Made by a program: the position numbers
Part shown: positions 12,001 to 18,000 of the stretch, one piece after another
How positions within the stretch are numbered: the first letter of the stretch is position 1
How the letters are laid out: each line of letters starts with the position of its first letter
Source: Candidatus Aenigmatarchaeota archaeon
GTDB lineage: Archaea; Aenigmatarchaeota; Aenigmatarchaeia; CG10238-14
Reading direction: 5' to 3'
DNA: 28,140 nt
Assembly (NCBI GenBank): GCA_044343545.1
Contig: JAWBZR010000007.1
Location: 1 to 28,140 of the forward strand

Positions 12001-15000
12001 TCAAACACTATTATTGCAGGTTTTCCCAAAGAATCGTCTCTATCAAGCAATTCCTCTATGATAACGCTTACGAGGTGGCTTTTTCCCGCACCTGACATTG
12101 CAAGTATGGCAACGTGTTTCTGTAAAAGTCTGGTCACGTTGATCCTAGCTTCCAAGTTGTGATGAAATATTTTTCCCAAACACAAACCATTCTTATCAAA
12201 GCCAAGAAATTTTTCCAATATCATCTCATCTATTTCGCTGATTTTCATTCCAGGAGAAGGAGGAAAAGTTACTCTTTCTATTTTACCTTCATTAAAAAAA
12301 CCTAGTATACTGCAGTTTGCAACCAAATATTCCCATCTCTCTATCGGAAAAGCTTCGCTTATAGGATTGTTCCCCCTTTCATATTCTATCACAGATTCGG
12401 CTCTTGAAAAATATCTATTCGTTTTATATATCTCGTTAACTCTTGCTATTATTATTCCATTACCTGTATCTACTTGGACGAATTGACCTTTTCTTACAGA
12501 AGAATCGGTTATCGCAAAATCAAATTCCATTGTGTTAGGGCCTTTTTCATTTGATATGATGCTACCAAAAATTTTCATAATCAATAATTAAAGCATCAAT
12601 AAATTAATTAAGTTATGCATTAAATTTTATGAAAATGAAATTCATACTCAACGAGCCAGCCTTATATTTGAGCGATGTAAATTCGCTTGTAATAGGAGAT
12701 TTGCATATAGGTTTAGAATATGAGTTGAGCAGGAAAGGAATAAACTTGCCAAAACAAACAAACATGATGCTTGAAAAAATTCAATCTTTGATAAAAAAGA
12801 CGAATGCAGATAACTTGATCATCTTGGGTGACATAAAACACCAAGTTCCTGGAATTAGTTACACGGAAGAAAATGATATAAAACATTTTTTTGAAACACT
12901 CCAAAGAAAAGTCAAGATTTCTGTTTGTTTGGGAAATCATGATACTTTTTTGAAAAAAATTCTTTCATCGAGAAAAATAAAACTATATAGTTCAAGGGGA
13001 TTCAAGATTAAAGATTACGGTTTCTTTCATGGTCACGCGTGGCCAAGGAAAGATTTGTTCAAATGCAAGTATCTTATATCTAGCCACATTCATCCTACAA
13101 TACTTTTTCTTGGAAAGTTTGGTCATAGAATTACTGAGCCTGTTTGGATTAAATTCAAGCTTGACACAAAAAAGATAGAGAAAAAATATGACATAAAAAA
13201 CAAGGGTTTGGAAATGATAATAGTCCCCGCATTTAATAGGCTTTTAAGCGGATCAAATATAAATGTTTCTAAAATAAAAGAAGATTTAGATCCATTGTTA
13301 AGTGATTTAGTGATAAAGGAAGAGACAGAATTTTACTTGCTTGATGGCACATACCTTGGGAGGTTGAAGGATATTGGTTGATAGTGTTCAAGCTGTAATA
13401 TTCAATGAAGATATGAAATTTTTGCTAATAAAAAGGAGAGGATATCATGATAGTAACTTTTTTTGGCGTTTGGTAAAGGGTAGAAAAAGGTCGGGAGAAA
13501 CGGATGAGGATGCTTTAAAGAGGGAAATAGAAGAAGAAACAGGTTTAGAGAAATTCAATATTTTAAAAAAAATTTACAGTTATTCTTTCATATCTCCTGA
13601 AGGAGACAAGGTCAAGGTTAATACATATTTAGTTTTTGCCAAAAAAGATCAAAGGTTGCAAAAAAAAGACGAAGAAGAGGATATCGTGGAGTACAAGTGG
13701 GCTAGTTTTGATGAAGCGAAAGAATTACTTCATTATGTCGAGGAAATCGAAGCTGTTCAAAGAGCAAAAGAAAATTTAAATCATCCCCCATTCTTTTAAT
13801 AGTTGTTTTTCATCATCTTGGAGTTTGTCTAGAATTTCCACGAGGATTTTCAAGTTATGAGGTGTGATTACGCTTACGAGTATATCACCTTCAAATATTT
13901 GCCTACCAACTGTGGGTTCGTCCATAGAGATGGCAGCCTTTTCACCAGTTTTTATTTGATTTATGTTTTTCCCTTCTTTTTGAATTTGTTTAACTTTGCC
14001 AACATCTTTTTTGTTTTCTAGAGCTAATGGAGTGTTGACTTTTAAAACCCCAGCTAAAACTTCCACTCCAAATATGGCAGGTTGCCTCTTTCTAAAAACA
14101 AAACCAGGCAATATTCTTATCTTTGCAGGTCTGATAACACTTTCCAGTTTTTCCAGTTTTTCTCTTTCTTTTTTATCTTCTCTCCATTTTTTAAAATCTT
14201 CAACTATCTTGTAAATAATGTTGCTTTTGAAAACTGGTATCTTCTTTTCTCTTGCCATAATTTCAGCTTCTTCAAGCAAATCTACGTTAAAACATAAAAT
14301 AGCTTTCTTGTCTTCATCTTTCACAACGTCGAGTTCTACGATATCTTGTTTCGTCACATGACCTATTTCTGCCTTTTTTACCGGTATTTGATTGTCTGTC
14401 AATATCTTAACCAACGCTTCCAAGCTTCCAAGCGTGTCTGCTTTTGCTATGACACCTTCTATATCTTTCGAAAATTCTATTTTTTCAGTTTCTTCCTCTA
14501 CTATTTTCTTTGCCATTTCTATTTCATCTTCACTTTTCACGCAAACTATCGGACTCCCGGCTATCACGTTTTCCAAGTTTGGTGCGGCTATTTTGATACC
14601 GGCAGCAGCAACTACTTCATTTACAGATTCAAATTTCTTTTCCATTCTTAACTCTCTCAATTCTGGTGGTTTCAGCAAAGCTTTTATTTTTGTCACAACC
14701 ACGCCATCCTTTCCACCTACTATTAAAATGTCTCCTACCCTAACCACGCCGTCATATATTATAGCATCAATAGTCGTCCCAAGACCTTTAACTTCTTTTA
14801 CTTCCAGCACACTACCTCTCGCTTTTTCGCTCATTATTAGATTTTGAGTAAGAAATTTTTGAGCAAGACCTGCTAACATGACAAGTAATTCTGAAATTCC
14901 TTCACCCGTTTTTCCTGAGCAAGGAACAATTGCAACTTGCTTTTTAAAATCTATAATTCTATCAAACCTTTCGGCTTCAAACCCTCTTTCATAAAGTTGA

Positions 15001-18000
15001 GCAACAAGTGAATACAGCTTGGATTCCAATTCGTCTTGAACTTCTTTTGATTGGAAAGAAAAACTATCATGAAAACATGTTGTTCTTTTGTTTTGCCATC
15101 CGAAAATTAAATCTATTTTTGTTGCTGCTACAAGGAACGGAGTTTTGTATTGCTTTAGAAAATTTAGTGATTCGTCTGTTTGAGGTTGGAAACCTTCGTT
15201 TATGTCGATCACTAAGATAGCTAAATCAGCTATTGATCCACCTCTTTTTCTCAACGTTACAAATGCTTCATGTCCTGGAGTGTCGATGAATAGCAAACCA
15301 GGAATTGTAATGTCTATTTTCAATCTTTCTAACAAGTTTCCGCATAACTTTTTTATTACGCTAGTAGGGACGAAGCTTGCACCTATGTGCTGCGTTATTT
15401 GTCCGGGTTCAGCAGCATTGATAGCAGTACCTCTTATAGCATCTAACAATGACGTTTTCCCATGGTCTACATTTTCGGTTAGCCGCGATTAAGCGAGCTA
15501 ATGTCCGAGGACCGATACGATGGGTTGCCTTATGCGAGTGATACAATCACCTCTTTTTAACACCAATAGATTTATCTTTTAAAGTTTTAATTTATATTTA
15601 ATGTCTTTGACCATTCACGATATAAAACCAATAGGTTTATGCATAGCGACGCAAGAATTATTTGATACAAAAAAATTTATTTTAAATTATTGTGACAATC
15701 TACTTCTTCGAGGCAAGGAACCTTCATTAGCAAGCAAAATAAATACAATCAAGAGAGATTTGAATAGTATAAGGACGCAACCAAAGTTTTTAGATGGTTA
15801 CAAGGCTATATTGATAAGCAACATCGATAGAATAATCGCTCTCGTCGAATCTAGATATGGTAAAACATTTTCGGATGAGGTAGATCTTGTGAAGAAAAGC
15901 GGAAAAAATATTATAGAAAAAATCATCAATGCTCAGTCGTTCGACGAAATTTCACTACTCGAAGATGTTTTTAAGACGAACATCGTCCATCCAACATATA
16001 GGCTTTTCGTCGAAGATATGAAGAAACTAAAAATAAACATTATTTAGTTTTCAACATTCTTCAACCCAGGAAAACTTTTTTTGCAACGTTTTCGGGTAAT
16101 ACTTTTTCCAGTCAAAACCTATTTTTTTGAACCATTTATAATAAACTCTTGGATCAATGTAACTTTTCAGTGAAGTATTTAAATTATAATCTCTCGTCTT
16201 TTCCATAATTTCAACCTTTAATTTCATGTTCTTAATTTTTTTCTCCATTTTCTCCATTTTCTCGGCCAATCTTTTTTTCATCTTTTTTTCAATCTCCCTC
16301 ATTTGTTTTTCAATCTTTTTCATCCTTTCTTCTAGCTTGACATCTTTTCCACCTTTTTTCTCTATTCTCAATCTTAATTCTTCCATCTTTTTTTGCATTT
16401 TCTCCATTCTTTGTTTCATTTGTTTTTCAATCTTTTCTTTTGCTTCATTTTTTTGTCTTTCCAACTTTTCAATACTTTCAAACTTCTTTTTCAGCGAATT
16501 TTCCCAATTCTTGGGCAAACTCCTTTTGTGATTACAAGTAATAGCTGCTTCAAGATTCGCCAGAGTGGCAACAAATTTTTTGTATTCTTCCTCATCGGTT
16601 TCTTTGACTTTTGCCTTTTTCAGATATTCGTCTATCGTTTTTGTTGCATGATATGTCCTAAAAACTTTTGCCGTAATACCTGGAACAATGCTGCTTAAAA
16701 ATTCATTTACATTTTCAGATCTAATACCACCAAATATTCTACCATTCTTTCCTGGTTTTGATATGAACTCTTTCAAGTTATTGACAACTTCTTTTGGCAA
16801 TTTTACTTCTTTATGCCAATGAACCGAATCTTTTCCGAGAAAATCGAAAACGACTACATTATTTTCTTTTATTTTAACATTTTCTACTGTTAATGTCGTT
16901 GCACCTACCGTGTTCGCTTCGTCCTTATCCTTTTCGTCGCCAACCCTCATCTTGATCGCGTCTATAAGATAGCAAACCGTCGCAATTTTTCTCGTTTTAA
17001 CATCTTCTGAAGTCAAGTTATTCACTATATGTTTCATGAGTTTGTCATAATTGTTTCCCAATTCTATTGCTTTGTCATATTTTTCCTTTTCCCGGTTTTG
17101 CTTTACAAAACAGGAATCAGCAAGCCAAACATATTTTTCTTTCCCAGTTAGTTTATCATCCCATTTTGCTATCCACATACAGTTTGGCATCCAAACGATT
17201 TCTTTCCAATTTCCTTTTGGCCTAGGCGCATCCGGTGACAAGTTCAATATTATATCCTCTTCTTTAGGACCTTCTTTCCATCTACCTCTCAGTGGGTGAT
17301 CCCCTCTTCCCATGAATATGCTGCTCGGCTCCGCTATATAATTAGCTATCTCTACTTTCATGCCGTCAACAATAGCATATCCGTATTTTTCCTTGTTTTC
17401 TTCCCTTATTTTTTTTCTTTGCTCTGCCAAGGCTTTTTTTTCTTCTTTGCTCATTCTTTCTTTGCTCATTCTTTCCTCGTTCAAATAATTAATTATTTCA
17501 GAAAAATCAAAATCATCTTTCGTTCCTTCAACTCCGAGAGCTTTACAAAAATCTGAAAAGAAATTTTTTACGAAAACAGGGTCTTCTACATATTTGGTTC
17601 CAAGTTTTTTTACCCACGCCACTGCCATTTCTTCTTGTTGAGGAGTTAGTGAAATGAGTTTGTTTTTAAATTTTATTTTAAATCCTTTAGGCTCGTATTT
17701 TGTCACAAGTATACCATTGTGTATCAACTGATACATATGTCGTCGCCTTTAAATAAAGCAAGTGAAAAAATTAAAAATTTTTAGGTTCTTACTCTTCTTC
17801 TTGAATTCTCGGTGCCAAAATGAAACTTATTTCAACTTTATCCAAATCTTTGAAAATCATTTTCATCGGGTAATCTGTTGACCACATAATAGTGACTTCA
17901 TCAGACAGCTTTGCCGCCTTTATCATCTTTTTCAAATAATCTAAGGGATATCTTGCTTTACTTTCACTCCCTTGTAACTCTATCAAACCCTCATCTCCTT

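Follow-up and report, generated by a model that had tools for sequence, protein, structure and literature searches.

The aIF5B Locus

The window analysed here, the whole 28,140-nucleotide stretch of contig JAWBZR010000007.1 from a Candidatus Aenigmatarchaeota archaeon, carries on its minus strand the gene for translation initiation factor aIF5B. The host is a tiny hot-spring archaeon. The codons for the GTP-binding (P-loop) motif of the factor are split between GH and VDHGKT by 30 nt, the minus strand reading ...GTC CTC GGA CAT, 30 nt, GTA GAC CAT GGG AAA ACG. Frame translation across the insert gives ...IRQPIVSVLGH*LA*SRLTENVDHGKTSLLD, where the stops are TAG (15500-15498, minus strand) and TAA. 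A six-frame search with TIGR00491 matched model positions 1-578 to 13788-15536 at 740.5 bits with this one TAG and one TAA inside, and found it to be the sole full aIF5B copy in the 651-kb assembly. The 1049-position IF-2 model NF011418 of NCBIfam, which we take to describe an intein-bearing IF-2, also matched the gene. As called, the ORF (13776-15449, 557 aa from a TTG) begins only at position 20 of the 591 in TIGR00491, and the P-loop is therefore missing from the call.

With cuts placed after the second base of each bulge of the fold described below (AC/A and AA/A), putative exon 1 occupies 15503-15566 on the minus strand, comprising about 21 codons and the C of the His codon (end ...CUC GGA C). 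Its start is uncertain between TTG 15566 and GTG 15563, the candidates found among in-frame ATG, GTG and TTG codons of the 22-codon ORF, and its peptide ...RIRQPIVSVLGH agrees with the N-termini of uninterrupted relatives. The predicted 30-nt intron follows at 15473-15502 (minus strand), and exon 2 (13776-15472, minus strand) supplies the AU of the His codon, then VDHGKTSLLD..., and ends in the stop codon at 13776-13778. The genome-wide survey's note had reported the insert with its TAG and TAA, a single aIF5B copy matched at about 740 bits when two stops are read through, and a 557-aa call devoid of the P-loop; sequence, frame translation and profile alignment agree with it throughout. The length of 30 nt that it gave also stands, and the edges, placed there at about 15471-15500 with equivalent cuts one or two bases further, lie at 15473-15502 under the second-bulge-base rule.

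Gene callers output exactly the 557-aa ORF, as would be expected of a decaying or split gene in which the hairpin insert stays and the cell either uses the internal TTG (15449) to make a P-loop-less protein or has lost the function of the gene altogether. We consider this very unlikely. The assembly offers no other aIF5B copy, the remaining sequence reaches 710-740 bits and is free of further stops, exon 1 is in frame and conserved upstream of the insert in all carriers, and the insert persists in 20 of the 170 genera of the phylum. A GTPase without a P-loop, moreover, is unable to bind GTP. An intein was rejected on the in-frame TAG and TAA and on insert lengths, 17 of which, among 36 distinct sequences, are not multiples of three. 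A group I or II intron, or any other Rfam family, was likewise discarded, with no match at gathering score across the whole window; 30 nt is far too short for either intron group.

Folding of the Junction

When the aIF5B junction was folded blind, the minimum free energy (MFE) structure contained an outer exon-exon helix of GGUC (15510-15513) with GACC (15464-15467), a central helix of exon bases UCGG (15505-15508) with intron bases CCGA (15475-15478), the bulge ACA (15504-15502), and an inner hairpin h' (15479-15501; UUAGC(U)CGC, loop UUAAUC, GCG GCUAA), all on the minus strand. The central helix, which covariation also picks out, has 4 bp and a 3-nt bulge 3' of each strand, ACA on one side and AAA (15474-15472) on the other, which is the bulge-helix-bulge (BHB) arrangement. 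One base between the outer and central helices stays unpaired on the 5' side, and seven do so on the 3' side. The helices and both bulges had already been proposed in the survey's note. The fold has a free energy of -19.8 kcal/mol (z -1.96), with 9 of 200 shuffles as stable, and single-sequence fold support is therefore modest. Blind folding of relatives returned the motif in 29 of 33 distinct sequences by our own reading of the output.

Distribution of the Insert

Inserts at the same site, located by HMM regardless of intron sequence, were present in 12 of 23 family genomes. The presence of same-site inserts in relatives had been claimed before, and correctly, but the nine sequences then listed understated their extent. 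The family inserts fall into two types, eight beginning 'CAT TAG...' (27-30 nt) and four beginning 'CAG TGA...' (18-30 nt). A junction-pattern search of the phylum found carriers in 33 of 370 genomes, and lengths ranged overall from 18 to 33 nt. That five records (G370-G374) all lie outside the phylum was rejected, two being identical in sequence to the phylum genomes G040 and G078. Only L039, L042 and L050 appear to lie outside it, because their junction strings are absent from the 370-genome search. Another candidate, L005, was dismissed as a further stop-containing gene, the search having read through its terminal TGA.

Homologous inserts were found in 30 archaeal records from different projects, and two runs of a single study contain it in identical form in their contigs, one of these possibly being the window's own source. 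No point in favour of an assembly or sequencing artefact was found, and we regard such an origin as barely conceivable.

In 28 of the 36 distinct sequences exon 1 runs straight into a stop codon, as had been noted earlier for a smaller set of relatives, and a hairpin comes after it. Translational bypassing of the type known from phage T4 gene 60, where a stop codon at the gap is accompanied by a hairpin, would account for this arrangement: ribosomes would take off before the stop, skip the hairpin and land at exon 2. The take-off and landing codons, however, do not match. The mismatch of CAU and AAU had already been raised against bypassing, and it extends to the relatives, where the gap is preceded by CAU or CAG and exon 2 by AAU or AAC. 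Two further points, on the His codon and on the central helix, are given below, and bypassing is in our judgement highly improbable.

Cut Positions and Compensatory Changes

When each cut was placed behind the second base of its bulge, GH[VI]DHGK[TS] was restored in frame in all 33 distinct sequences. In the GGACAG-TGA type, the second-bulge-base cut yields His and a cut at the codon border would yield Gln; bypassing would give Gln or drop the His.

In the central and inner helices, 96.3% of cells were paired (shuffles 79.9%, slid controls 16-45%), and 50 cells carried double changes compared with 12.6 in shuffles, none of 500 shuffles reaching 50; here, as in all comparisons, the genomes are related and thus non-independent samples. 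The central helix alone was paired in 97.0% of cells over the 33 sequences, with an exchange from CG (27) to UA (6) that couples a synonymous exon change with an intron change. Covariation in this helix would not be needed for bypassing. The inner helix h' was paired in 95.7% of cells, with both-side changes in five of five junction-proximal pairs. The patterns that retrieved the sequences outside the family prescribe GGACA and AAAY, so the conservation of those bases there is not independent evidence.

The outer helix behaved differently: in a single fixed register only 66.7% of cells were paired, and it was rejected in that form as a conserved feature. Exon-exon complementarity nevertheless exceeded that of intron-less genes, with mean duplex energies of -13.2 kcal/mol with the intron and -7.4 kcal/mol without (n = 12 each, related genomes), and the exon motif YYGGAC was present in all 12 family genes that bear the intron and in one of the 12 that lack it. 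Given the low pairing of the fixed-register helix, the junction motif is best called a relaxed BHB, and the relaxed 3' side with its 7 unpaired nucleotides, as originally described, agrees with the fold.

Splicing Machinery

The genome encodes a splicing endonuclease as a 177-aa ORF with both domains (PF01974, 98.9 bits, and PF02778), and a profile search identified an RtcB ligase at 538 bits. The endonuclease is the only catalytic-domain match in the genome; its alignment with the M. jannaschii alpha4 enzyme (1a79) runs from end to end, and it carries a 6-residue Lys-rich insertion. ARAGORN predicted introns in 15 of 39 tRNA genes, and the splicing machinery is therefore heavily used.

Besides the modest z-score of the fold, two observations speak against a BHB intron: the predicted 3' splice site lies outside a clean 3-nt bulge, and the endonuclease resembles the alpha4 type, described in the available text of PMC5829648 as strict for canonical BHB motifs. 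Both would sit more easily with removal of the insert from the RNA by some other activity, for example another RNase together with a ligase. BHB geometry and the cut rule nonetheless account for all 33 junctions, no other archaeal system excising such short inserts was met in the literature searched, and, according to the available text of PMC5829648, DPANN alpha4-type enzymes with an extra loop occur alongside many disrupted tRNA genes. Another activity is very unlikely to be responsible.

Bulge geometry, cuts that restore the P-loop, compensatory changes, lengths that often cannot be divided by three and a genome that encodes both enzymes together favour a BHB intron, the reading first put forward in the survey's note. 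Very probably, the aIF5B pre-mRNA has a real BHB intron in these 30 nt (15502-15473, minus strand). How it is cut out and the exons joined, and what becomes of unspliced mRNA, we infer as follows. After transcription, UCGG of the exon would pair with CCGA of the intron as a 4-bp helix, which the inner intron hairpin and the looser exon-exon helix would flank, presenting the bulges ACA and AAA. The single-subunit alpha4-like endonuclease would then cut behind the second base of each bulge, and RtcB would ligate ...GGA C to AU GUA GAC..., remaking the His codon and the P-loop GHVDHGKT, with the intron released, probably as a circle. On unspliced mRNA, translation would end at the TAG right behind exon 1, and no P-loop-disrupted factor would be made.

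A Second Putative Host Gene and the Search for Further Introns

The paralogue aIF2-gamma, which accounts for 8 of the 36 distinct sequences, has the same intron type at the same place in its P-loop; this is new here and was absent from the survey's note. In the host's own genome, aIF2-gamma was not found by HMM or tblastn, and since the assembly is 90% complete, this is no evidence of its absence.

Further mRNA introns in the same genome were sought in a non-exhaustive way. A loose combination of BHB motifs and ORF joining gave 4757 candidates and was uninformative; a stricter version gave 31, among which aIF5B alone was convincing by eye. A signature regular expression had seven matches, and the three non-aIF5B matches inspected were ordinary coding sequence, two of them being a single prolyl-tRNA-synthetase-like stretch that recurs where contig ends overlap and the third lying in the EF2 region.

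Discussion

In the literature searched, drawn largely from outside subscription journals, no report of introns in aIF5B or aIF2-gamma was found. The only confirmed BHB intron within an archaeal coding sequence in that literature is that of cbf5, first described in 2002 (PMC2738675, available text), and papers of 2018, 2020 and 2025, in the sections accessible, cite only the cbf5 studies for such introns. Two predictions of introns in other protein genes are cited in PMC2738675 (its refs 39 and 50, in the portion available).

The cbf5 pre-mRNA introns occur in Crenarchaeota (Desulfurococcales and Sulfolobales; Watanabe 2002, Yoshinari 2006, Yokobori 2009, PMC2738675). By the accessible text of PMC2738675, they resemble the present introns in being short insertions in a protein-coding gene (16-44 nt in cbf5, 18-33 nt here), in a mostly relaxed BHB whose bulges are cut between bases two and three, in splitting the codon of a catalytic-site residue (Asp in Cbf5, the P-loop His here), and in a patchy, lineage-specific presence and absence. 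The hosts, in contrast, are aIF5B and aIF2-gamma, the intron occupies a homologous site in two paralogous genes, and the carriers are Aenigmatarchaeota together with the three records seemingly outside the phylum. The enzyme differs as well: a single 177-aa alpha4-like endonuclease is present here, whereas the cbf5 work, in the parts available, tied pre-mRNA splicing to a hetero-oligomeric enzyme. Assignment to the cbf5 type proper, with cbf5 as host and an (alpha-beta)2 endonuclease, was therefore rejected. Splicing of cbf5 is confirmed, whereas here it is predicted from sequence.

HVO_1309 of Haloferax volcanii has a BHB intron in the 5' UTR of its mRNA, confirmed in vivo and in vitro (PMC7714728, available text). 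It shares with the present case an mRNA as substrate of the tRNA-splicing endonuclease at BHB sites, which is predicted here, but lies in an untranslated leader where, as described there, no codons are interrupted. Non-canonical tRNA introns of DPANN archaea and Thermoproteales are similar in that their BHB motifs are relaxed, that genomes hold many of them and that related ones occupy several sites (PMC5829648, available text); here, however, the host is an mRNA, and the shared site is a conserved coding motif of two paralogues instead of tRNA positions.

The P-loop inteins of archaeal translation GTPases are also selfish-looking insertions, placed in these same genes where the codons are most conserved, and one relative has an intein directly behind VDHGK, five codons past the intron site. 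Inteins, unlike the inserts described here, leave at the protein level, in frame and without stops. For non-canonical tRNA introns, transposition was reportedly proposed by Fujishima in 2010.

That the P-loop intron is more than passive, being both a spreading element and a means of coupling initiation-factor production to the state of the cell's RNA processing or translation, is a tentative idea that we think rather unlikely. A small element could spread between aIF5B and aIF2-gamma via the shared motif GGA CAY GTN GAY CAY GG, and this coding motif could serve as half of the element's own splice site. That aIF5B and aIF2-gamma keep it, and EF1-alpha and EF2 do not, may tie initiation-factor output to tRNA-splicing capacity; alternatively, output may be tied to the passage of ribosomes along roughly the first 20 codons, by which the motif would be melted. 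The stop right behind exon 1 would belong to such a regulatory design.

If the introns are real, the second and third host genes would mean that pre-mRNA splicing by the tRNA machinery is no crenarchaeal oddity, and its proposed link to hetero-oligomeric endonucleases would be called into question. They would also account for a systematic annotation error, the lack of the P-loop in the aIF5B and aIF2-gamma calls of these genomes. With one site shared by two paralogues, the gain and transfer of introns in archaeal protein genes could be tested directly, and both hosts, aIF5B and aIF2-gamma, are essential translation factors in DPANN-type archaea.

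Insert and reading frame of the aIF5B gene

On the minus strand, the aIF5B gene reads ...AUC GUA UCG GUC CUC GGA CAU, followed by 30 nt (UAGCUCGCUUAAUCGCGGCUAACCGAAAAU) and then by GUA GAC CAU GGG AAA ACG. Translation across this site gives ...IRQPIVSVLGH*LA*SRLTENVDHGKTSLLD..., after which the frame is open up to the stop at 13776. The ORF placed here by the gene caller (13776-15449, minus strand, 557 aa, TTG start) lacks the G1 motif, since its match begins only at profile position 20 of 591 (TIGR00491) or 27 of 598 (NF003078) of the archaeal IF-2/aIF5B models. A six-frame search of the entire assembly (651 kb in 22 contigs, 90.45% complete) returned a single full aIF5B match at 13788-15536, covering model positions 1-578 with 740.5 bits and containing one TAG and one TAA; two further matches (33 and 24 bits) were to other GTPases. 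The genome-wide survey's note, which had described an insert with internal stops in a single-copy gene, was therefore correct, the same frame translation and the same full match having been recovered.

The product of the adjoining gene (16051-17736, minus strand) is a topoisomerase IB of eukaryotic type, with Pfam matches to Topoisom_I (225 bits), Topoisom_I_N (175.7) and Topo_C_assoc (61.6); the enzyme is uncommon among archaea. A 148-aa ORF divergent from the aIF5B start (15601-16047, plus strand) had no Pfam or NCBIfam match, and no Rfam family matched anywhere within the window. Elsewhere in the assembly, the ends of contigs C4 and C14 share a near-identical, overlapping prolyl-tRNA-synthetase-like coding stretch, and because of this overlap the two can probably be joined.

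Predicted fold and cut sites

Unconstrained folding of 66 nt around the site gave -19.8 kcal/mol (z = -1.96; 9 of 200 shuffles were as good); taken alone, this energy is weak support. The fold consists of an outer helix (GGUC/GACC), a single unpaired C, a central helix (UCGG/CCGA), the bulge ACA and the inner hairpin UUAGC(U)CGC-loop-GCGGCUAA, while AAAUGUA (7 nt) stays unpaired on the 3' side. The rule stated for the bulge-helix-bulge (BHB) introns of crenarchaeal cbf5 in PMC2738675 is a 3-nt bulge 3' of each 4-bp helix strand, with the cut between bulge bases 2 and 3. Applied to the window, this rule gives AC↓A and AA↓A, an intron of 30 nt at 15502-15473 and the junction ...GGA C↓AU GUA GAC. 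The cut at the codon border (about 15471-15500) proposed in the survey's note yields an identical product in the window sequence. We conclude that the predicted 5' site is canonical and the predicted 3' site relaxed.

Inserts at the same site within the family

An HMM search found aIF5B in all 23 genomes of the window's GTDB family, and inserts were located by reading the DNA upstream of DHGKT, the gene itself having been found without reference to the intron. An insert was present at exactly this place in 12 family loci (carriers), and the remaining loci were uninterrupted; a TGA inside L005, considered as an interruption, is merely that gene's terminal stop. Eight carriers are of the GGACAU-UAG...CUAACCGAAAAU type (27-30 nt), which was found in 5/5 genomes of the window's genus, window included, and in 3/3 of a second genus. 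The other four, from three further genera, are of the GGACAG-UGA...CACCCGAAAAU (or CCAAAAAC) type (18-30 nt). The latter type fixes the position of the cut, because its exon 1 ends ...GGA CAG and a codon-border cut would give Gln instead of the conserved His, whereas the BHB cut GGAC↓A...AA↓AUGUC gives GGA CAU GUC, that is, G-H-V. Translational bypassing, in which the ribosome would skip the insert, fails as an explanation, since matched codons are absent and the GGACAG type contradicts it.

The exon half of the BHB motif, YYGGAC, was seen in 12/12 carriers versus 1/12 non-carriers among the family aIF5B genes. Exon-exon duplexes between the 24 nt of exon 1 that precede the motif and the 24 nt of exon 2 that follow it averaged -13.2 kcal/mol (mean z -1.99) for the 12 carriers versus -7.4 kcal/mol (z -0.43) for the 12 intron-less genes, a comparison given without a p-value because the genomes are related. 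The sole non-carrier with YYGGAC, L009 (genome G019), still has CTCGGACAT as its exon motif, and its two exon flanks are strongly complementary (-12.2 kcal/mol); as a congener is a carrier, it may have lost its intron recently. A 511-nt contig from sequencing runs X1, X2 and X6, aligned to window positions 15372-15533, has 78 letters against the window's 108 (30 fewer). It belongs to a divergent relative present in the same samples and fits a coexisting intron-less aIF5B allele.

Distribution beyond the family and a second host gene

The pattern GGACA, 12-42 N, AAAYRTNGAYCAYGGNAARAC matched 32 loci in a species-representative genome collection, 30 of them archaeal; the two in Clostridia records do not continue as GTPase genes downstream of the motif and seem to be chance matches. 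Four same-genus records (L034, L038, L040 and L044) were identical to family loci. The 3'-junction pattern CCRNAAAYRTNGAYCAYGGNAAR occurred at 34 places in 33/370 genomes of the window's phylum, spanning 20 of its 170 genera, and a reversed-pattern control on the 370 genomes gave 0 matches. Some bases are fixed in each of the two patterns; the counts are therefore minimum values, and the scans are silent on the conservation of the fixed bases. L039, L042 and L050 seem to lie outside the phylum, because their junction strings are missing from the scan of its 370 genomes. Their titles name Micrarchaeota, Hadarchaeota and Iainarchaeum, respectively; such titles are unreliable as taxonomy: the record L048 is titled Nanoarchaeota, yet its sequence is that of a genome in the window's own GTDB class. 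That the insert is an artefact is contradicted by identical contigs in two runs and by 30 independent public records with inserts. A dead or split aIF5B gene is likewise rejected, given that the gene is single-copy in the genome, that exon 1 is conserved and that the interrupted state persists across 20 genera.

In 4 of the 30 archaeal loci of the collection scan, exon 2 reads VDHGKTSLTQ.LTGKWTDTHSEE... and exon 1 ends ...EINIGL[VF]GH; by sequence, these loci are aIF2-gamma. An intron of the same kind was found at the homologous P-loop position in the aIF2-gamma genes L079, L080 (= L030), L031, L046, L056, L089, L091 and L114. The 34 phylum-scan matches comprised 30 loci, 22 in aIF5B and 8 in aIF2-gamma, and four others, one of which is the aIF2-gamma gene of G020. 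Neither EF1-alpha nor EF2 was among these 30 loci, though their xHVDHGK codons are compatible with the pattern. Within the family, aIF2-gamma was interrupted in 2 of the 20 genomes with a match (G008 and G020) and uninterrupted in 16 with a readable P-loop, two matches ending before it. Both genes carry an intron in two genomes, G020 (L013 and L079) and the MAG of L031 and L037. The boundary bases of the G008 aIF2-gamma intron (GGACAGUGA...UCACCCGAAAAUGU) are those of the aIF5B introns in its congeners G004 and G006, and the aIF5B of G008 itself is uninterrupted, which suggests that the intron either moved between the paralogues or was gained more than once at a single favoured sequence. No aIF2-gamma was matched by HMM or tblastn in the window's own assembly, where the best match to the model was EF1-alpha (88.6 bits), but at 90% completeness this is not evidence of absence.

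Two different insertions share a single P-loop in the aIF2-gamma gene L114 (1-1515, minus strand, genome G179): one is an intron of the BHB type, and the other, five codons downstream and behind VDHGK, is an intein (Pfam Intein_splicing, 38.7 bits) whose LAGLIDADG domain matched LAGLIDADG_3 at 51.2 bits.

Insert lengths, stop codons and covariation

Altogether, 36 distinct sequences were obtained, 28 from aIF5B and 8 from aIF2-gamma (the boundary of L091 being set by eye), with lengths of 18-33 nt. Tolerance of the insert through stop-codon read-through, or as an intein, is not tenable, as 17/36 lengths are not multiples of three and so break the frame, and stops lie inside the insert. The first in-frame stop directly follows the CAN codon in 28/36, comes one codon later in 7/36 and later still in 1/36. 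In these related sequences the early stop is a regularity rather than proven selection, and it is partly explained by the inner helix beginning UUAG, GUGA or UUGA.

Covariation was assessed in an alignment of 33 distinct junction regions (28 aIF5B and 5 aIF2-gamma), in all of which bulge-anchored cuts gave an in-frame GH[VI]DHGK[TS]. Over the central helix, whose 3' strand was left free by the search patterns, and the first five inner pairs, standard pairs filled 96.3% of 295 cells, compared with 79.9% (sd 1.1) in shuffles and 15.6-45.4% when partners were slid by 1-3 columns. Double-sided changes numbered 50 cells versus 12.6 in shuffles (0/500 reached 50) and were found in 5/5 inner pairs. 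The second central-helix pair switches from CG (27) to UA (6), linking a synonymous third-position change in an exon 1 Leu or Val codon with a change in the intron. Kinship alone can lift sequences above shuffles without structure, an explanation disfavoured here by the slid controls and by the number of pair types. The outer helix, in one fixed register, paired in only 66.7% of cells, which bears out the relaxed 3' side described in the survey's note.

Splicing machinery and relation to known introns

A single match to the tRNA intron endonuclease catalytic domain (98.9 bits) was found in the genome, in a 177-aa ORF with both N-terminal and catalytic domains. This ORF and 1a79, the homotetrameric enzyme of M. 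jannaschii, align over their full lengths (E = 9.6e-36). The ORF has six extra, Lys-rich residues in the loop before the conserved His-containing segment, a place where the ARMAN-2 enzyme has additional residues too. According to PMC5829648, several DPANN lineages and Hadesarchaea have alpha4-type enzymes that carry an additional loop, L3, and these occur alongside many disrupted tRNA genes. RtcB is also encoded (538 bits), and ARAGORN called introns in 15 of 39 tRNA genes.

To judge from the sequence, the aIF5B pre-mRNA very probably contains a genuine BHB intron at 15473-15502, which is of high interest for archaeal RNA biology and annotation. As far as the passages on the subject in PMC2738675 (2009), PMC5829648 (2018), PMC7714728 (2020) and PMC12397907 (2025) go, cbf5 of Crenarchaeota holds the only confirmed intron within archaeal coding sequence; one BHB intron in a Haloferax mRNA 5' UTR is also named there, and the 2009 paper mentions unconfirmed predicted introns in other genes. 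A literature search for introns in aIF5B or aIF2-gamma found nothing. Unlike the cbf5 introns, those predicted here occur with an alpha4-like endonuclease, in DPANN-type hosts and at one site common to two paralogous initiation GTPases.
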